A stretch of DNA of 64,000 bases. Origin: Escherichia coli. Its GTDB lineage: Bacteria; Pseudomonadota; Gammaproteobacteria; Enterobacterales; Enterobacteriaceae. The stretch lies in the NCBI RefSeq assembly GCF_044647545.1, contig NZ_CP172818.1; one strand, written 5' to 3'. The notes below the pieces were generated by a model. The model saw only the letters and a program-made list of their open reading frames with translations. It was not told the DNA's origin and did not search any database. The translations under genes and the position numbers were made by a program. The stretch's first letter is position 1. Every line of letters starts with the position of its first letter. Below are positions 1 to 20,509 of this stretch, piece by piece.

Positions 1-83
1 GTAAACGATAAAGTCTCGGTAGAAGCAAAAGAGCTGATCGCAATAGGGGTTGTCAGGACTATTCCCAGAAGTTTCGCCCGCAT
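1..83 (-). CDS. ompT: Outer membrane protease OmpT, 5' fragment (start codon and signal peptide only; gene continues beyond window start)
   Basis: Reverse-complement of bases 1-83 translates MRAKLLGIVLTTPIAISSFASTETLSFT, which I recognise as the OmpT signal peptide and mature N-terminus; AT-rich upstream region follows. Confidence 0.7.
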   Translation of the reverse strand, partial: MRAKLLGIVLTTPIAISSFASTETLSF

Positions 84-507
84 AAAAGTTCTCCATTCAA
101 TCGTTTTAATGATTGAATATGTATTTTTTATATCTAACTTAATGAGTCAATTACATATTGCTCCACTGTTTATATTTTGTTTAGTATTGAATGATTATCA
201 CAATGCGCTATCTGTTTTTGGTTTAATTATCTGTTATTGTTTCATATTGCGGTTTTACTGTGTGGTTTTTTTATGCTTTTGTGGTGCTTTTATCTATTTA
301 AGTGCCATGCCTTTAGAGGCATATAAGCGAAAATAGCATGAGGTTTATCCTCAATTACTATGTTTTTTAGTACAAAAAAGAGGGACAAAACTGAGACACA
401 TAAGGCCTCACAATGGCTTGCAAGGCTTTACATGTTTTGAGGTAGTGGGACGTGTGAGCGCAGAGATGGCGCGGTAAGTTGTTGACTTAAAATGTCGTTC
501 TAGGAAC

Positions 508-551
508 TTCTAAGTCGTGGGCCGCAGGTTCGAATCCTGCAGGGCGCGCCA
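508..551 (+). pseudogene. pauD: 3' fragment of tRNA-Arg (argU-like), the DLP12 prophage right attachment-site remnant
   Basis: CTTCTAAGTCGTGGGCCGCAGGTTCGAATCCTGCAGGGCGCGCCA matches the anticodon-loop-to-3'-end portion of argU tRNA; no 5' half is present, so it is not a functional tRNA. Confidence 0.7.
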
Positions 552-595
552 TTTCTTCTTCATTTAATCCCGTCTTATCCGTTCCGCTTTGCTCT

Positions 596-1357
596 TCACC
601 ACATCACTTTTTGTCGCTGTTTGGCGAGATAATTCAACGGTGTCAGGCCGTAAAACGCCTTAAAAACAGAGATAAAGTACGACGTGCTGCTATAGCCACA
701 TAATTGCGCCACCTGAGTGATATTTTTGTTATCCATCAATAACATCTGTACGGCGTAACGCATACGACACTCTGTGACAATCTGGCTATAGCTGGTATTT
801 TCGTTTTTTAATTTCTTTTTGAGCAGGCTGGGGCTTAAACATAGCGAACTGGCGACAATTCGCAGATTCCAGTAATGCTGAATATCGCTTTGAATAATGC
901 GGCAGACGCTGTCGCGGACGCTGCTGCGTAAGATATACATCAGTAGGGCAATAAACCGCGATTGCTCAAGAAAGTTAGACAATACGGTAAAAAGCAATGC
1001 GCGCGTCAACTCCGCTTCGCAGGGTTTGCTGGGTTGCTGCTTGCTGTGGTTGGCGGCTAGCCGGAACACTTCCGGTGTACGGCTATGACAAGCGATAACC
1101 GGGGTTGCCAGCCGCGACCAGGGCTTTATACAGGTTAAGTTCTTATTTAAAAACAACAGATAATCGTTGATGATGTTACGGTTGATGTGGGTGATTAATA
1201 CGTGATTTAACGTTGAGAGTTCAATGACGTTATTGTTGCACGCGAAGGCGGCCAGGTAGTTTTTCGGAAGGGTAAACGTAGCATGGTTATTGACGCTTAC
1301 CTCTACCTCTTTTTCGGTCAGGATCACCACGCAAGGTTCACTGCTGCTCAATTGCAT
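596..1357 (-). CDS. envY: AraC-family transcriptional regulator (porin thermoregulation)
   Basis: 253-aa ORF with a C-terminal AraC-type helix-turn-helix region; sequence recognised as EnvY; position between ompT/attR and ybcH matches K-12 synteny. Confidence 0.85.
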   Translation of the reverse strand: MQLSSSEPCVVILTEKEVEVSVNNHATFTLPKNYLAAFACNNNVIELSTLNHVLITHINRNIINDYLLFLNKNLTCIKPWSRLATPVIACHSRTPEVFRLAANHSKQQPSKPCEAELTRALLFTVLSNFLEQSRFIALLMYILRSSVRDSVCRIIQSDIQHYWNLRIVASSLCLSPSLLKKKLKNENTSYSQIVTECRMRYAVQMLLMDNKNITQVAQLCGYSSTSYFISVFKAFYGLTPLNYLAKQRQKVMW

Positions 1358-1539
1358 TTCGCACTCCTCAGATATCAGAAACTCCGCTCAAAGGATCTAT
1401 GCTTCCTGCATGAGTGATCGGCCCGTTCGCCGATAACGATCTTCTTTCTTTAGCACGCTTTTTAGCAATTAATCTTGATGGAATTCTGACGAGAGCGAAA
1501 GAGGTAAGCCAGGTCGTACCCGACTTACCTGGAGGAGAT

Positions 1540-2430
1540 TTAATACTCGAGAATGCCGTGCGCGACGGGCAAATAGCGCAGAGAGAAATAGAGCGTGTCT
1601 TTACCGCAAGAGGAACGTTTCGCTAACAGCGAGGCAATTTCTGCGTCCGGTTTCGGTTTCGCTGTAAAGGTTTTGCCTTTGCCGGCGACAAACAGTTCAT
1701 AAACAATGCCGCTTGCTGGGGCGGAGCTTTGGCAATCGGCGCTGGCCTGTAGATAACGTTCACGCTGTTCAGCGGTCAGTTTATCCACGCCGCTGCCATC
1801 CTGTACCCAGACATTAACGCCGGTTGCTTTAACGTGTTCCAGCAGTTGGCGATAGCCATCGGGCGACATGTTTCCGGCGAAAAAACTACTGATATAAACC
1901 GGTTTTGCTGAAACATCGCTAATCAACCGCTGCGCGTTGTTTAACCATGTTAGCAAAGGCTGACGGGCGGCTTCGCTGCGCCAGTTCAGGTCGTCAATTT
2001 CCGCGCTGATGTACCAGCCATCCGGCGTTACGCCAGGTACGGCGCTCCATAATCTGGCTTGCTGGAGATCGGCAGCCAGCAGGCGGTTAAGATAGCTTTC
2101 CAGCGCTGCAGACGACTGTTTCTGGTGCATAAAAAATTCCGGATCGGCATTCAGCCCGACAATCAGCTTCAGGCCAGCCTGTTGCGCAGCTGCGGCACGC
2201 TTAAACAATAACGCGTGCTGTTCTGGCTGGGTGAATGCATCGCCGTAACGAGTCCATTGCAAAACCAGGGTATCGAAGCCTTGCAAACGTAACTGACTCA
2301 TCAGCCCCTGCCACTGGGTATCGGTAACCTGACTATCACGGTTTTGTGGTTGCCAGATAATACCTTTCATCGCAAAGGAAAAAGGGCTGACCAAAAGCAG
2401 TGTCAGCAATACGAAAATGAACTTACGCAT
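1540..2430 (-). CDS. ybcH: Exported protein, third gene of the nfrB-nfrA-ybcH operon
   Basis: 296-aa ORF with N-terminal signal peptide (MRKFIFVLLTLLLVSPFSFA); its start lies directly beside the nfrA stop on the same strand. Confidence 0.85.
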   Translation of the reverse strand: MRKFIFVLLTLLLVSPFSFAMKGIIWQPQNRDSQVTDTQWQGLMSQLRLQGFDTLVLQWTRYGDAFTQPEQHALLFKRAAAAQQAGLKLIVGLNADPEFFMHQKQSSAALESYLNRLLAADLQQARLWSAVPGVTPDGWYISAEIDDLNWRSEAARQPLLTWLNNAQRLISDVSAKPVYISSFFAGNMSPDGYRQLLEHVKATGVNVWVQDGSGVDKLTAEQRERYLQASADCQSSAPASGIVYELFVAGKGKTFTAKPKPDAEIASLLAKRSSCGKDTLYFSLRYLPVAHGILEY

Positions 2431-5403
2431 TTACCAGTGCACTCCAATGGTGAGAAACGCATTGTTGCGCTCTCCGTTACGTTGATTAATCGCCTTAAAG
2501 GTATGTTGATACTCGACGCCGAGACTGACTTTGTGCGGCCAGGCGTCGTAGTGCGTCTCGCCGGTCCAGATATTCCAGCGGACCCCGACACCGCCAAGCT
2601 GCGCGCCCTGAGTGCCTTTATCACGATAGCCGTTGTCCTGAACGTGAGCGTAAGGCTCAATAGTCTGTCCGTTAGCTACCTTCTGATGCCAGCTGACGCG
2701 ATAATCTGCCGTCCACGCCTGAATATCCTGGCGGATATATTGCGCTGCATCGAGGTACAGGTTTTGGGCAAACCAGCCTGAACCGTTCGGGTGCCATTCG
2801 TCGCTGTATTTGCCGCCATTAAAGAATGAGGCGCTGGCGCGCAGCATGGTATCGGATGCGCCATTTTGCCCGTTCAGCGGCAACTGCTGTTCGACGGCGA
2901 GGAAAAAGATCTGATCGCGCAGCGGCTTCCAGCGCAGACCGGTGCCGGACATCGGATTTTTCACCGGCATCATCACCCCGTTTTCTCCAGTATCGGCAAA
3001 TACACGGCTGTAAACCGAGAGCAGGTCGCCTTCCAGCAGCATATTGCGTCCGATGCGATACTCGGCTTCCAGTTGCCCGTAGCTACGATAGCTTTTCCCT
3101 GGCGCTGCGCCGCCGACATTATTGTTAGCGGTACTTATTGCGCCGGAACGCAAGCCGATAGAAGAATCGAAACTGAACGTCCAGCGGCGACCGACCTCCT
3201 CATGCAGACGGCGGAAATTGAAGCGTTGCTGATTTTGCTCTGGGGTCAGTGGGGTTATCAGCGCCTGATTATCAATGTCATCAATCACCAGCCGGGCGTA
3301 GTGCTGCGTCGCAGGCATGTCATCCAGACGCTGGTTCACGTAGGCCAGTTGTCGGATAAGTGCCGGATCGTCCGGTAGCCCTTTATGCGCCTGTTCGAGC
3401 ATTTCCCGCGACTGTGCGATATCACCGCTATCCCACAAGGCGTAACCGAGCGCTGCCTGGGTGTTGCTATTATTCGGTTCCAGTTCCAGCGCGGCGCGCA
3501 AATCACTCACCGCCGCCGGGACATTATGACGTTGGCGATAAATTGTCGCCCGCGCAACGTAAGCGTTGGCAGAAGGCGCAATATTGATTGAGCGCGTGAG
3601 ATCGTTCAGTGCGAGTTCCGGCTGACCAGGAATGTAACGTTGCGCATGCAGCCACCAGTAGAGGGCATTGTTTCCCAGCCCACGTTGTTCTGCCTGCTGA
3701 AGCCAGCGATCGCGAGCCGCACCATTTCCTGCCGCCTGGGCGGTATTGGCAGCAGCAAGCAGATCCTCATTGCTCATGTCGTGAAGACTGATTTTCTGCC
3801 AGGCCGCCAGTGCGGTGGCGTAGTCCTCAACCTGATACGCCTGATAGGCTACCGCACGATGTTGCCAGGCGTTCGGTTGTCGTTGTTCGGCCTGAAGCCA
3901 TGCATACAACGCCACACCGGGTAGCGTGTCCCGATAACACTTTGCCAGACGGTTCCAGGCGGCGGCATCGTAGGAAGGCGACATATCGCCCAGCAAGCGA
4001 ACTATTGCCGGGCAATTATCTGCAATACCCGGCAACTGACTTTGCCACTGACGTTGCTCCGCCAGCGGTAAAGGTTTCGATAAAATCGCCACCTTCGCCG
4101 GCGTTGCCAGGTAAGGATGACTTTCCAGCAGAGACGCCAGTCGCGCCATTAACGTCTGGCTGACACGCGCATCGCCCTGGAAAGGATAGCGTTGCAGCAA
4201 TAAATCGGCAGCTTCGCGTGACTGCTCGTTCTGCATCAGTTGCCAGGTCAGTTGATCCAGGCGGGTAAGATTTGCCGGTTCTTGCTGATACAGCAATCGT
4301 GCCAGACGCAGAGCTTCAGCCTTGTTATGGGTCGCTACGCTAACGGTATAACGCTCCTCAAGCATTTCATTGGCGGGGAGGGTGGCGAGCAGTTTTTGCG
4401 CTGCGTCGTACTGACCTTCTTTTAACAGCACCGGTAGCGTCGCGCCAACAACATACTGGCGGTTATCGGCAAACTGTACCGTATAATTCGCCAACGCCTG
4501 AACGGGGTTGACGCTGTATTTAGATAACAGATAGAGCCAACTTTTCTCTTGTGCGTCCGTGGTAAACAGCGGCTTATTTTCAATGAGATAATGCTGGAGG
4601 CGCGCTTTTTCGCCACGATAAGCCAGCGCGGTCGCGTAAGTAATATATGACTGAGGATCGGTGAAGATCCCCTGTGATTGCAGCGCCAGGATCCGATCAT
4701 CCAGCTGCGCGGCAAGAAGCACGTCAAACCACTGACGGCGTTCTGCCGCGCTTAATGTGTTCTGCTGGCGTGCTTCATTATATAGCGTATCTGCCTGGGA
4801 CCATTGTTTCAGGTAGATTGCGCGTTGCAGCAGATCGGTTCGCAACGTTTTTCCTTCCGGCGATGCAGCAAACGTCGCATCGTTTAGTTGCGCTCTGGCG
4901 ACAGGTAATTGTGCCAGCCGCAGGGCATTCTGCCCGACTTCACTGCGACAACGCAGGGTCGGCGCAGCGTCGCACGCTTTTTGCTGGGCAAGCAGTTCTT
5001 CAACAGTCGTAACGCTTTTCACTTCAACTGGAATAGCCGCCAGACTGCGCTCAAGTCGGGCATCTCCTGGGTGACGTTTCAGTTGATCCTCAAGCAACAG
5101 CCGCGCCCGGTCATCATGACCAAAATGGCGATAGGCTTCCGCAAGGTATAAAGTCAGCGGAATATTATCCGGCACCTGCTGGTGTATATATTCAAATTCG
5201 CGGATGGCGGTTGCTTCGTCGTTATTTTTCTGTGCCTTCAGCGCCTTGTCGAGACGGGGATAAATAACGAAATGGCGATAATCGCTCAGCCCCAGCTCTT
5301 CTGCGCTGGTGCCGATATTGTCTGCGAGTGCGCTGGTACTCAATAAAGACGTCAGCAGTAAACCAGACCATCCGATGACGCGATTAAGGTTATTCTCCTT
5401 CAT
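2431..5403 (-). CDS. nfrA: Outer-membrane phage N4 receptor subunit / polysaccharide export protein with TPR repeats
   Basis: 990-aa product starting MKENNLNRVIGWSGLLLTSLLSTSALA (signal peptide), long TPR-like N-terminal half, C-terminus ending in an aromatic residue (…GVHW) typical of outer-membrane beta-barrels. Confidence 0.9.
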   Translation of the reverse strand: MKENNLNRVIGWSGLLLTSLLSTSALADNIGTSAEELGLSDYRHFVIYPRLDKALKAQKNNDEATAIREFEYIHQQVPDNIPLTLYLAEAYRHFGHDDRARLLLEDQLKRHPGDARLERSLAAIPVEVKSVTTVEELLAQQKACDAAPTLRCRSEVGQNALRLAQLPVARAQLNDATFAASPEGKTLRTDLLQRAIYLKQWSQADTLYNEARQQNTLSAAERRQWFDVLLAAQLDDRILALQSQGIFTDPQSYITYATALAYRGEKARLQHYLIENKPLFTTDAQEKSWLYLLSKYSVNPVQALANYTVQFADNRQYVVGATLPVLLKEGQYDAAQKLLATLPANEMLEERYTVSVATHNKAEALRLARLLYQQEPANLTRLDQLTWQLMQNEQSREAADLLLQRYPFQGDARVSQTLMARLASLLESHPYLATPAKVAILSKPLPLAEQRQWQSQLPGIADNCPAIVRLLGDMSPSYDAAAWNRLAKCYRDTLPGVALYAWLQAEQRQPNAWQHRAVAYQAYQVEDYATALAAWQKISLHDMSNEDLLAAANTAQAAGNGAARDRWLQQAEQRGLGNNALYWWLHAQRYIPGQPELALNDLTRSINIAPSANAYVARATIYRQRHNVPAAVSDLRAALELEPNNSNTQAALGYALWDSGDIAQSREMLEQAHKGLPDDPALIRQLAYVNQRLDDMPATQHYARLVIDDIDNQALITPLTPEQNQQRFNFRRLHEEVGRRWTFSFDSSIGLRSGAISTANNNVGGAAPGKSYRSYGQLEAEYRIGRNMLLEGDLLSVYSRVFADTGENGVMMPVKNPMSGTGLRWKPLRDQIFFLAVEQQLPLNGQNGASDTMLRASASFFNGGKYSDEWHPNGSGWFAQNLYLDAAQYIRQDIQAWTADYRVSWHQKVANGQTIEPYAHVQDNGYRDKGTQGAQLGGVGVRWNIWTGETHYDAWPHKVSLGVEYQHTFKAINQRNGERNNAFLTIGVHW

Positions 5404-7627
5404 TTTCGGACTCCAGTTGCGCAACCTTTTCTGTGTTTAAACCTGCTTTGAGTAATAGTGATTGCATCGAAACTTGTAATTCGCGTTGAATTGTCAGAAC
5501 GCGATCCAACGTTTCCTGGCTGATAACGCCTTCGGTGACCAAAAACTTGCCGAGCGGCAGAGAACTGCGTTCATGGTGCAATAACAACACGTTAATTGCT
5601 GAACGATTAATATGACCGAGCGTGGTCAGTATTTCGGCGAACAGGAACTGATGCGGCACATATTGCCGCCAGATTTCACCGGCCTGCTGTTCCGTGAGCC
5701 ACTGATGCTGAACCGCATTGTACAACATTGCCCGCGGATCGTGACCGCGTCGGCGCGCATACCAGTGGCGTAACCCCGTGACAATTTGTCCCCGCAGAAC
5801 AATGACGTAACGCACTTTGCGTCCGACTTTACGCGTCAGGGCCGCCAGCGAAACCGGGTCAATACCATCTTCACTGCCGACAATTAACTCATCATTTTCC
5901 AGACGCAGCGGCAGCACTGCATAATGCAGCGCCACGGAGGCCGGCATCTCGGCAATCAGTGATGAAGGGATCTGCCAGGCGTCGATCGACTCCCACGCCA
6001 CGCCGTTTTGCTCTGCCAGCGCCTGTGCCAGCTGCTCGGCGCTAATCAGCCCCTGCATCAGCATTGAACCGCCAAGGCGTAGACCTTCGACGCGATTACG
6101 CAGTGCTGTATCGAGTTGTTCTTCAGTGATGACCTGATTTTCCAGCAGAATTTGACCTAACGGGCGCAACGAGCGGGTATCGCCAGTCACGCTGGGGAAG
6201 TCATGCGTTGTTTTATCCCACGCCACGCGACGTGGATCGCCGTGTTGAAGTACCTGTTTTAACGCGCGCCAGTTGGCCATGAAGTTAATCAGGTTGCCCC
6301 AGAAAAGACGCAGGACAGATAGTAGCCCCTGCGTCAGGCCGTAGTAGCCAGTGACGAAAATCACCCGCTGCACGATGCGGTTAACCATCAAGCCAAAGTT
6401 TAGCCACAGCAGGGTCATTAACCATGCGCTGCCGCTGAAAATAGAAAGGAAATGCCAGGCATCGGGCCACAAACTTTCATACGCCAGTAACAGCAAAAGC
6501 TGGATCATCACCAGCATCGCGAGGAAGCTGACAAAGTTACTGATTGCCCCTTTGCGGTCGCGCCAGAGAAAGTAGTTCAGCGTCAGGCTGGAGGTCCATT
6601 TGTGGGTTTTAAAGCCCTGGAAAACAATGCCGATGATCCAGCGAGATTTTTGTCGAACCGCCGTCGAAAAGGTATCGGGGAAATATTCGCGCACGCAGAT
6701 CATGTTTGACGTCCGCGCGTGCTGTAAAAATTTACGCTGCTCGCGTTCTTTGGCTTCGTCCACCACCGGAAAACGGACAAAAATTTCCGTCATACCTTTT
6801 TCTTTCAGGCGGAAACCAATGTCGTAATCTTCAGTAAGACTCTGCACGTCGAAAGCAATACCGTCACCGTCAGCTAACAGTGCGGTCACGGCGCGGCGGC
6901 TGAAACAAGTACCGACACCTGCGCTGGGCACCTGTCCGGCGAGGGCTTCACGCACCGGAACATCTTTGCCATGCAGTTCTGAAAACTCATCAATGTAAGT
7001 CATGCTGGTGAAGTGCGTCCATTCGCGTTCGAATGGGTATACCGGGATCTGAATCAGATCTTTACGCTCGACCAGATAGTTGAACAGACGCAATTCCATC
7101 GGTGAAATTACGTCTTCGGCGTCATGCAGAATAAAACCAGCAAAAGCGAAATTGGCGCTACGCTCAAACTGGGTGATGGCGTCCAGCACGTTGTTCAGGC
7201 AGTCGGCTTTGCTGGTGGGGCCAGGACGCGCGCAGACTACCTTATGCACGTTTGGGAAGCGAGCGCACACTTCGTCAACATCACGCTGAGTATCGGGGTC
7301 GTTGGGGTAGGTGCCAACAAAGATATGATAGTTTTCATAGTCGAGCGTGGTCGCCGCCAGCTCGGCCATATTGCCGATGACGCCCGTTTCATTCCACGCC
7401 GGAACCATAATCGCTAACGGTTTTTCATCTGGTTTATACAGTTCGCGGTAACTCATTCGCGGGTAGCGGCGATAAACACTCAACTTGCGTTTAATGCGGC
7501 GTACCCAGTAGACGACATCAATAAAAAAATCGTCCAGCCCGCTGATGAACATGATGACCGCTAACGTTATCGCGATTACTTTTAAGCCATATAGCCAGGT
7601 TGCAAAAACATCAAGAAGCCAGTCCAC
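5390..7627 (-). CDS. nfrB: Inner-membrane family-2 glycosyltransferase, phage N4 adsorption protein B (c-di-GMP-responsive)
   Basis: 745-aa ORF with N-terminal transmembrane segment, a DAED acidic motif and a QKSRW (QxxRW) motif characteristic of processive GT2 synthases; overlaps the nfrA start by 14 bp. Confidence 0.9.
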   Translation of the reverse strand: MDWLLDVFATWLYGLKVIAITLAVIMFISGLDDFFIDVVYWVRRIKRKLSVYRRYPRMSYRELYKPDEKPLAIMVPAWNETGVIGNMAELAATTLDYENYHIFVGTYPNDPDTQRDVDEVCARFPNVHKVVCARPGPTSKADCLNNVLDAITQFERSANFAFAGFILHDAEDVISPMELRLFNYLVERKDLIQIPVYPFEREWTHFTSMTYIDEFSELHGKDVPVREALAGQVPSAGVGTCFSRRAVTALLADGDGIAFDVQSLTEDYDIGFRLKEKGMTEIFVRFPVVDEAKEREQRKFLQHARTSNMICVREYFPDTFSTAVRQKSRWIIGIVFQGFKTHKWTSSLTLNYFLWRDRKGAISNFVSFLAMLVMIQLLLLLAYESLWPDAWHFLSIFSGSAWLMTLLWLNFGLMVNRIVQRVIFVTGYYGLTQGLLSVLRLFWGNLINFMANWRALKQVLQHGDPRRVAWDKTTHDFPSVTGDTRSLRPLGQILLENQVITEEQLDTALRNRVEGLRLGGSMLMQGLISAEQLAQALAEQNGVAWESIDAWQIPSSLIAEMPASVALHYAVLPLRLENDELIVGSEDGIDPVSLAALTRKVGRKVRYVIVLRGQIVTGLRHWYARRRGHDPRAMLYNAVQHQWLTEQQAGEIWRQYVPHQFLFAEILTTLGHINRSAINVLLLHHERSSLPLGKFLVTEGVISQETLDRVLTIQRELQVSMQSLLLKAGLNTEKVAQLESENEGE

Positions 7628-7776
7628 ACAAAAACCTTACATTAACGCTGGTTATGTTTAGGGTGGCGTATATTAAAGTTTTTTATGAATTGTGACAGCT
7701 TTTTATCATTAATAGGTAGGATTATTGCGGCACGTTATTTTTACACTGGTTATAAAAGTTGCCGATTGCTGAAGGA

Positions 7777-9219
7777 TTAAGCGGGTAGTTTGATCATAAA
7801 CCTTGTTCCCCGCGCATCTGACGTTACTGCAACCGTGCCTTTATGCGCGACAACAATTGATTTCACTATCGCCAGCCCAATGCCGCTACCTTCGCCTTTT
7901 CGCTGGCGGGAAGGATCAACGCGGTAGAAACGGTCAAACAATCGCGGTAAGTGTTCGGGCGCAATGGGCGTACCGGGGTTTTCGACGGAAACTTGCACCT
8001 GGTGATCGACCGTCTGGCAGCGCACAACAATTGCCTCTCCGGGTGGCGTATAACGCAGGGCGTTCGAAAGCAGGTTGCTTAACGCCCGACGCAACATCAG
8101 CGGATCGCCCGCAACCTGACACTCGTCACCAACAAACCGCAACTCCACGCCGCGATCTTCCGCTAACGCCTCGAAAAAATCGAACACTTTGCCGACTTCA
8201 TCCGCCAGGTTGAGCATTTTCTTTTCGGGGATTAACTGGTTGTTATCGGCCTGAGCGAGAAACAGCATATCGCTGACCATTTTCGCCATTCGAGTCAGCT
8301 CTTCGAGATTAGAGTAGAGCACATCTTCCAGCTCCTTCTGACTGCGCGACTGGCTGAGGGCGATTTCCGTTTGCGTTATGAGATTCGTAATCGGCGTGCG
8401 AATTTCGTGAGCGATATCCGCTGAGAAATTGGACTGGCGGGTAAAGACATCCTCGATACGCTCGATCATATGGTTGAACGACAGCACCAGTTGTTCGAGT
8501 TCAATGGGCACGGTCTGTGGATCGAGGCGAACGTCGAGATCTTTCGAGGTAATGTTCTGGATTTGACGGCTGACGCTGCGAATTGGCGCGTGGCCTTTAT
8601 GTACCGCCAGCAGCACGATAAAGACGATCAGGATGCTGATGATCGATGCGGTCATAATAAGTTTATTCATCAAATCATTTATGTAATGAAGATGAAAATC
8701 GATCGAAAGCGCGATGTAGAGCGTATAAATCGGTTTGCCGTCCACCAACGGGCCAACCGGCAAGTTAATCATCCGCCAGTTGCTGTGTTCCATATGCCCG
8801 TGACCGTGGCCTGGCATCATAATCGTCGGGCCGGAAAGGAGATACACCTCGCCACCCTGAGCGTCTTTATCGGGTATGGCGTCACGCGTAAACTCGCGGA
8901 TATCCGGCGCACCGGGGGAGTGATACACCGTTTTGCCGTGGCTATCTGCCAGGGAAATCAACACGTTGGAATAACCACTGACGATATCTTCCAGCGTCAT
9001 TAAGCGTCGGGCTTGCGTCTCGTCAGGATGATTAAGTACCCGTTCAAGGGTGGCGCTAATTTCTTTTAAATCATTAATATCCTGCTCGGCAAAATGCACT
9101 TTCACTGAGTGGATCATGATCCATGCAAAGGCGAAAAACGCCGCGATGGTGGCCAGGCTGATAAAAAAGGTCAGACGGGTTGCCAGCGAAAACGGGCGCT
9201 GAAATGGCTTACTGACCAT
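7777..9219 (-). CDS. cusS: Copper/silver-sensing histidine kinase
   Basis: 480-aa product from [16 protein letters not shown]; two transmembrane segments flanking a periplasmic domain, conserved His-containing phosphoacceptor region ([10 protein letters not shown]) and ATPase domain; overlaps cusR by 11 bp. Confidence 0.9.
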
Positions 9220-19812: not shown

Positions 19813-20196
19813 CTATTGATTTACGGTTGAGTCAGGACGCACTCTTTTTTGATCGCGTTTAGCCAGACCATCAACCACCAGATTCCACGAATCGTTGATC
19901 AGATCGCGAAGTAACGCTTCGGAGATTTCCTCGCCGGGATACACCGAAATCCAGTGCTTTTTATTCATGTGATACCCTGGCTTGATGCTTGGGTATATTT
20001 GCTGATTTAGCAGGGATTTTTGTGGATCGGACTTCAGATTGATAAAGGGGACGCCGCGCAGCTCCGACGACAGCATAAAAATCTTGCCGCCAATTTTAAA
20101 AACATCGAACTCCGGGCCAAAAGGCCAGCAAAGCTCGACAAAGGGTAACTCAAGAGCCAGGCGTTTCGCCGTTTCGTGCAGTGATTGCTTATCCAT
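19813..20196 (-). CDS. ybdF: Uncharacterised small cytoplasmic protein
   Basis: Start chosen at the internal Met ([19 protein letters not shown]…) giving about 122 aa; the longer 167-aa ORF would overlap ybdJ and is rejected. Confidence 0.75.
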
Positions 20197-20260
20197 AAAC
20201 GTTCCTTTAGGCGAAGGAGAATAAGCAAAGTATGCCGCGAAGTTCGGCGATAATCGACGT

Positions 20261-20509
20261 TTAATCCGCCAGCGAGAACCAGCGTCGCCAGATAAAGCGC
20301 AGAACAAAATACTCAATAGCGCCCAGCACTAAAAACCACAGACAAAACAATAAAGTGTAAAGCTGGCTAAGATCCATCAGATGGAACGTGGTCACCAGTT
20401 TTTGTGCCAGCGTCAGCCCCAATGCGGGGGCGGGAAGCAGCAGGCAAGAGAGGAAAGCCATCAGCAAAATGCCTGCTGCGGTGGTCAAGGTTTCTAAAGG
20501 GTGTTTCAT
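20261..20509 (-). CDS. ybdJ: Small inner-membrane protein of unknown function
   Basis: 82-aa ORF with two hydrophobic helices (…[21 protein letters not shown]… and …[18 protein letters not shown]…). Confidence 0.7.

Follow-up and report, generated by a model that had tools for sequence, protein, structure and literature searches.

The segment at positions 384–595 of the analyzed window, a stretch of 64,000 nt of Escherichia coli DNA, is almost certainly (probability about 0.97) the right attachment site, attR, generated by a DLP12-family lambdoid phage that integrated into the argU tRNA-Arg(UCU) gene. The initial annotation had proposed a prophage right attachment site here, and this was borne out by the recovery of the corresponding attB, attL and attP sequences together with an exact 47-bp repeat. 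Its statement that acquired DNA meets the chromosomal backbone at this place also held: to the left of the core the window matches phage DNA up to position 506, the shared core occupies 507–553, and from 554 onward the sequence is that of the empty-site chromosome. The acquired side includes ompT, an AT-rich block and the phage P arm, and the backbone begins within or after 507–553. The attR of an argU-integrated DLP12-family prophage is already known from the reference annotation and the literature, and the DLP12/argU arrangement was reportedly first described by Lindsey et al. in 1989. The value of the present analysis is therefore practical rather than conceptual, and current understanding is unchanged. 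For annotation, the prophage–chromosome boundary can be set exactly, at 506/507 to 553/554, with ompT and its H-NS-silenced upstream region assigned to the phage cargo and envY to the backbone. The sub-anatomy of the site (Table 1), its frequencies in the population, the ompT-carrying phage relatives and a mis-annotated “tRNA-Pro” in two phage records are mildly useful by-products.

Table 1. Features of the attR region and its flanks (window coordinates)
Feature	Position	Strand	Basis or remark
5' end of ompT	1–83	minus	start codon 81–83; signal peptide codons 24–83, then 7 mature residues
ompT translation-initiation region, predicted to pair with OmrA/OmrB	64–98	minus	converted from PMC2588501
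AT-rich ompT upstream region	84–383	none	G+C composition
Inverted repeat in the ompT 5'UTR	95–105/108–118	minus-strand mRNA	inverted-repeat search
Sigma-70-like promoter (weak candidate)	-35 TTGACT 150–145; -10 AAAAAT 128–123	minus	consensus search
[T/A]G[G/A]GAC copies, putative integrase arm-type sites	381–386, 392–397, 446–451	same strand	motif recurrence, conservation
P arm, phage-derived half of attR	384–506	plus	homology to int-att modules of other phages
Imperfect palindrome	405–426	minus-strand hairpin	folding, -14.2 kcal/mol
IHF-like sequence TAAGTTGTTGACT, putative IHF site	476–488	plus	resemblance and conservation
Attachment core, displaced argU 3' part plus TT	507–553	plus	exact identity with attL/argU
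Chromosomal flank (B' side), core to envY stop codon	554–595	none	continuation of the empty site
envY, AraC-family regulator gene	596–1357	minus	ORF of 253 aa, 42 bp past the repeat

The junction is defined by a displaced piece of argU. Alignment of the region to argU, which had been suggested as a check, found the expected similarity: the longest exact match of the window to argU and its flanks was 47 bp, at 507–553 (CTTCTAAGTCGTGGGCCGCAGGTTCGAATCCTGCAGGGCGCGCCATT), comprising argU nucleotides 33–77 (45 nt) and the two downstream bases TT. An exact 45-nt match to argU cannot be due to chance, and the 47-bp sequence occurs only once in the 64-kb window. An exact match of 44 bp to the argU 3' end had been described previously; the exactness stood and the length did not, the match covering 45 tRNA nucleotides, or 47 bp with the flank. 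The core contains the anticodon loop CTTCTAA, the 3' anticodon stem, the variable loop, the T arm, the 3' acceptor strand, the CCA and the terminal TT, and it was recovered without a mismatch at attL/argU of strain FDAARGOS_497, in the empty site of strain 13C1079T and in both K-12 copies. The first base of the core is the first base of the argU anticodon loop, which in attB lies between the arms of the stem dyad ACGAC/GTCGT. The crossover lies somewhere inside 507–553. Integrases that target tRNA genes usually cross over in the 7-bp anticodon loop, and since the block of identity opens with the very first base of this loop, strand exchange probably took place within CTTCTAA.

All four attachment sites of the integration reaction could be compared. 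The empty site, attB, was found in 13C1079T, where the gene order is sfmF-fimZ-argU-envY-ybcH-nfrA and the DNA to the right of argU is the DNA to the right of window position 553. An uninterrupted argU–envY junction, scored with a 247-bp probe spanning the junction and covered to at least 80%, was present in 2538 of the 5426 complete E. coli genomes, O157:H7 being among them. The occupied ompT-type junction, scored by at least 80% coverage of window 1–620, was found in 2715 of the same 5426 genomes, and the site is therefore a roughly 50/50 presence/absence polymorphism. The left site, attL, was identified in FDAARGOS_497, which is 100% identical to the window over 1–7769 and carries a second copy of the core about 47 kb away, at argU/intD, where an intact argU is followed directly by intD (387 aa). 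The lambdoid prophage of this strain encodes exo/bet/gam, a repressor, O/P-like replication genes, emrE, ybcK, rusA, Q, lysis functions, terminase, portal, capsid and tail proteins, J, lom and fibres, and finally appY and ompT. The pairing of the two repeats was thus seen in near-identical genomes and in K-12; attL, intD and the prophage body lie outside the window.

The fourth site, attP, was found in phage Kati (PP925833), in which appY and ompT are followed by window 84–553 at 100% identity, the P' arm and the integrase gene. Downstream of the core, Kati continues with the P' sequence of attL with four mismatches in 230 bp, and its integrase is 99.5% identical to the IntD of FDAARGOS_497. 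Within the extracted Kati locus (2048–4470), the genes adjoining attP are appY (100% at the amino acid level) and ompT (99.7% amino acid identity to K-12 OmpT), which is the same appY–ompT cargo. Phages Turner, 2G7b, ev243, PhiR49_1, PhiR26_1, PhiR30_1 and PhiR68_2 also match 84–553, at 98–99%. The phage attP sites continue from the core into the P' arm and int, whereas the attR of the window continues from it into chromosomal DNA and envY. As sequenced phages share 84–553, the “cryptic” DLP12 has relatives among phages, and ompT is carried by at least one of them.

These sequence relationships show attP and attB giving rise to attL and attR. Most probably the tyrosine integrase IntD recombined attP (P arm, 47-bp core and P' arm) with an attB consisting of the 3' 45 nt of argU and two further bases, with strand exchange probably in CTTCTAA, flanked by the anticodon-stem dyad. 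After integration, attL at the far end, beyond the window, consists of an intact argU with intD beside it, and the end analyzed here is an attR composed of the P arm (384–506), the argU fragment (507–553) and the original chromosomal downstream DNA with envY. Positions 1–383 represent the last phage cargo, namely the start of ompT and its AT-rich, H-NS-targeted upstream region, and these occupy the slot adjoining attP where related phages hold other lysogenic-conversion genes, for example gtrABC.

Comparison with K-12 MG1655 revealed the same locus (ompT, core, envY), with a 47-bp core at 586057–586103 identical to that of the window. The previously suggested alignment to DLP12 thus recovered the same locus and core, with 99.6% identity over 1–506 and a spacing between ompT and envY of 512 bp as against 513 bp in K-12. 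Over 1–620 the identity was 98.9% (six substitutions and one indel); two differences were located in 1–506, none in the core, and three substitutions and one indel in the 42-bp B' flank. Judging from its sequence, the window is from a lineage other than K-12. In NC_000913.3 the “cryptic prophage DLP12” is annotated at 564755..586056 and the 47-bp repeats start at 564755 and 586057; the DLP12 boundary in the reference is therefore exactly that of the repeat. A 47-bp argU-like sequence at the far end of DLP12 has been described as a probable recombinant attR (Ramisetty and Sudhakari, 2019; PMC6379469), and the location of DLP12 in argU is standard background (PMC10057817). A more degraded form of the site was observed in SE15 (phylogroup B2), where the remnant consists of an int fragment, a fibre-assembly fragment, a methyltransferase gene and ompT (extracted locus 3102–6760) and the attR core carries 5 substitutions in 47 positions, in contrast to the intact core of the window. 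In addition, envY has been deleted in SE15 save for a diverged 3' remnant. Although envY has been worded as “inserted” in other strains (PMC6854850), this diverged remnant suggests the loss of envY in B2 rather than its insertion elsewhere.

The phage-derived half of attR could be delimited by comparison with related modules. Homology to other int-att modules (epsilon34, SfIV, ENT47670, an Enterobacter phage) begins at window 379–384, and 384–506 was therefore assigned to the P arm and 84–383 to the ompT cargo. Six copies of the motif [T/A]G[G/A]GAC (three in P and three in P') were counted on one strand of the reconstructed attP and none on the other, with about 0.5 copies expected per strand, and the pairs are spaced 11 bp apart. 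As the motif was chosen after the data had been seen, we treat the copies as putative integrase arm-type sites. A literature search returned no usable mapped arm sites of the P22 type. The junction 18-mer was used to retrieve 33 distinct attP/attR sequences. The conserved columns of their alignment included the G.GAC motifs and GTGTGAGCGC, and the most conserved elements of the P arm were the tandem G.GAC at 381–386/392–397, the third motif at 446–451 within ..TGGGACGTGTGAGCGC.., and TTGTTGACTTA at about 476–488. The last of these differs from the IHF consensus by one mismatch, and 476–488 may accordingly be regarded as a putative IHF site.

An imperfect palindrome within the P arm (405–426) is predicted to form a strong minus-strand hairpin in the window, as well as in the epsilon34 subgroup, and the epsilon34 record carries a possible int terminator at the homologous place. 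A retroregulator resembling lambda sib, or an int terminator, was considered for this element and dropped, because the hairpin is not conserved across the attP family: RNAalifold over the 33 variants found no consensus structure at 405–426 on either strand, and several members are devoid of the hairpin. A sib-like role of the palindrome is thus speculative.

Among related systems, the attP of Salmonella phage epsilon34 has a P arm homologous to that of the window (80.6% identity; about 80% over 384–553). It is annotated as [quoted passage not shown] and lies beside a DLP12-like integrase gene, the product of which is 80% identical to the integrase of Kati. The layout in epsilon34 and in P22-like/SfIV-type modules is the same, with the core followed by int on the opposite strand and xis overlapping int. 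However, the cargo beside an epsilon34-type attP is gtrABC (O-antigen modification) instead of ompT/appY, and its core follows the Salmonella argU sequence. The architecture also resembles the textbook attR of lambda (P-O-B'), in which a phage arm bearing arm-type motifs and an IHF site is joined to the chromosome through an identity core, the corresponding arm-type and IHF-like sites of the window being putative. The lambda core, in contrast, is 15 bp long and lies between gal and bio, whereas the target in the window is a tRNA gene and the identity block spans 47 bp.

On the far side of the P arm, ompT is a prophage cargo gene. The reverse complement of window 1–83 (MRAKLLGIVLTTPIAISSFASTETLSF) begins with ATG and translates into OmpT residues 1–27, that is, the 20-residue signal peptide and seven mature residues, identical to K-12 OmpT over this stretch, which confirmed the earlier reading of an OmpT signal peptide on the minus strand in the first 83 bp; ompT is annotated at the counterpart of 1–83 in all matching E. 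coli genomes. The G+C content is 28.7% for 84–383 and 33.8% for 84–506, as compared with 52.3% for the whole window. The initial annotation had placed about 400 bp of very AT-rich DNA upstream of ompT. The AT-rich block is real, at 84–383, but its length is about 300 bp, because the adjoining 384–506 (123 bp, 46% G+C) is a different element, the P arm.

In K-12, a 351-bp “promoter island” (584821_351, ompT/envY) has been reported, which was bound by H-NS in all compiled ChIP studies and overlaps predicted genomic islands (Panyukov and Ozoline; PMC3661553); by coordinate conversion it maps to about window 48–398. A consensus search of the region returned one sigma-70-like promoter, which would yield an ompT 5'UTR of about 35 nt; with 1.6 such sites expected by chance, it is a weak candidate by itself. 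OmrA and OmrB are small RNAs whose pairing with the ompT mRNA spans nucleotides -15 to +20 relative to the ATG (PMC2588501), and window 64–98, which is identical to K-12, corresponds by sequence to this pairing region. Directly upstream of the ompT Shine-Dalgarno sequence, the inverted repeat ATTCAATCGTT / AATGATTGAAT at 95–118, kept in K-12, SE15 and O157, could fold as a hairpin. The ompT of O157:H7 has only window 1–196 in common, with homology that stops some 113 bp before the start codon (near window 196), which agrees with the reported divergence of the distal ompT promoters more than 150 bp upstream (PMC6854850). In O157:H7 strain 611, ompT was located away from argU, in an IS-rich region near minCDE (extracted locus 4130–5600). 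An ORF on the plus strand of the AT-rich block (109–336, 75 aa) would encode a hydrophobic, low-complexity product of this AT-rich DNA; it has no RefSeq annotation and is called in phage Kati, though only as “hypothetical”.

Two alternative origins of the argU-like block were weighed, and both appear highly improbable. A complete phage-borne tRNA or tRNA-like gene at 468–551, rather than a displaced fragment, is what the records of phages Kati (PP925833; extracted locus 4385–4468) and Turner (PP925837) would imply, since an 84-nt “tRNA-Pro” is annotated there on sequence identical to window 468–551. ARAGORN at a relaxed 80% threshold (-ps80) similarly returned a “tRNA-Leu” at 469–551, and the Rfam tRNA model gave a match of 24.8 bits (E=0.02) at 457–540; an inverted repeat of 8–12 nt (462–473 with 545–556) can pass for an acceptor stem that is out of register by 3 nt. 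However, ARAGORN found no tRNA or tmRNA gene in the whole 64-kb window at default settings and called no tRNA at the site with -ps90, although in the comparison loci it does detect tRNA-Arg(tct), 77 nt long. The Rfam match does not reach the gathering score of 29; it is limited to model positions 9–63, includes an insertion of 29 nt and owes its score to the genuine T arm. The three tools disagree in identity and structure (Pro, Leu and unassigned), RefSeq lists no tRNA at the site in any E. coli genome inspected, the 5' half of 468–551 shows no similarity to argU, and the acceptor pairing is often broken across the 33 attP variants (A.C or C.A in many). The P arm plus core was thus dropped as a real tRNA on account of its sub-threshold score, inconsistent identities and unconserved pairing, and the earlier claim that the fragment is not a complete tRNA agrees with the ARAGORN default result (0 genes) and the Rfam score (24.8 against 29 bits). 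We judge the “tRNA-Pro” of Kati and Turner to be a false positive composed of the real argU 3' half and unrelated P-arm sequence; the style of the locus tags suggests that it came from an automated pipeline. The default cutoff of tRNAscan-SE is 20 bits, and this program would probably fire here without refuting the fragment reading, which makes the tRNAscan-SE call named as a refutation in the initial annotation an unsafe test; its mis-calling of tRNA fragments at att sites is a documented problem (PMC9897764). The site thus serves as a worked example that a tRNA-finder match at an attachment site is not to be taken as a tRNA gene. Equally remote is a reading in which the argU-like block bounds a genomic island of non-phage origin or arose as a duplication by homologous recombination. 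Non-phage islands may also be bounded by tRNA fragments (PMC4383910), and “integration via homologous recombination” is the wording, loosely used, of one DLP12 study (PMC6379469), but a lambdoid phage genome lies between the repeats with a tyrosine integrase at attL, in free phage genomes these P and P' arms are joined through the core without a break, and the sharp edge of the identity block at the anticodon loop is typical of integrase cores.

Whether this attR still functions is a separate matter, on which two readings can be entertained, each less likely than not. It may be only an inert scar, the prophage of the source strain being grounded as in K-12 and attR past excision. The K-12 element is a 21-kb remnant with IS3 in renD, IS5 in nmpC, xisD and exoD pseudogenes and most head and tail genes lost, the int of SE15 is truncated and its attR core carries the substitutions given above, and the element is usually termed cryptic or defective (PMC6379469; PMC10057817). 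Yet the 47-bp core of the window is still identical to argU, and the closest relatives of the window carry, unlike K-12, a complete-looking 47-kb prophage with an intact int and genes for recombination, immunity, replication, lysis, terminase, head, tail and fibres. In addition, the 5' end of int is overlapped in FDAARGOS_497 and Kati by an open Xis-like ORF, sequenced phage records share the same attP (Kati, Turner, 2G7b, ev243, PhiR49_1 and others), and, according to one report, induction of Hha leads even K-12 DLP12 to excise (PMC4632033). In the second reading, the element of the source strain may be, instead of the “cryptic” DLP12, a Kati-like lambdoid phage that is complete and inducible, with this attR as a live excision substrate. 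If so, ompT (an outer-membrane protease gene) and appY (a regulator gene) would count as lysogenic-conversion genes that phages can transduce, and not as fixed genes of the chromosome. The polymorphic site and the sequenced DLP12 relatives bear on the spread of ompT, a factor in antimicrobial peptide resistance. The Xis-like ORF (..SLTLDEACQFLKISRPTATNWIRTGRL..) is located at 19962–20363 (minus strand) of the extracted FDAARGOS_497 locus and at 5503–5958 (minus strand) of the Kati locus; the RefSeq annotation at this place is limited to a 66-bp helix-turn-helix pseudogene fragment, and xisD of K-12 is listed as a pseudogene.

On the chromosomal side, envY is the first gene beyond the prophage and adjoins argU in prophage-free strains; it is 99.7% identical to K-12 envY and is annotated as envY in every matching genome. 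The intervening 554–595 continues the empty-site sequence downstream of argU and is not phage sequence. A signal of recent horizontal spread was sought in the identity to K-12, and no clear one was seen, with 99.6% for 1–506 versus 99.7% for envY and only the B' flank divergent. This 42-bp flank was unusually polymorphic, with three substitutions and one indel relative to K-12 and two and one relative to 13C1079T; its identity to these two strains was 90–92.5%, as compared with 99.5–99.7% for envY. Further into the backbone, window 7770–7783 consists of 14 nt (TGAAGGATTAAGCG) at the place where every genome matching 1–24000 at 100% carries a 10.45-kb island that is missing from the window; no genome of the collection is thus collinear with the window, and FDAARGOS_497 was rejected as the source strain because it departs beyond position 7769. 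This insertion lies between nfrB and cusS and encodes an ISAs1 transposase, RHS fragments, an RHS core protein, a DcrB-like protein and VgrG.
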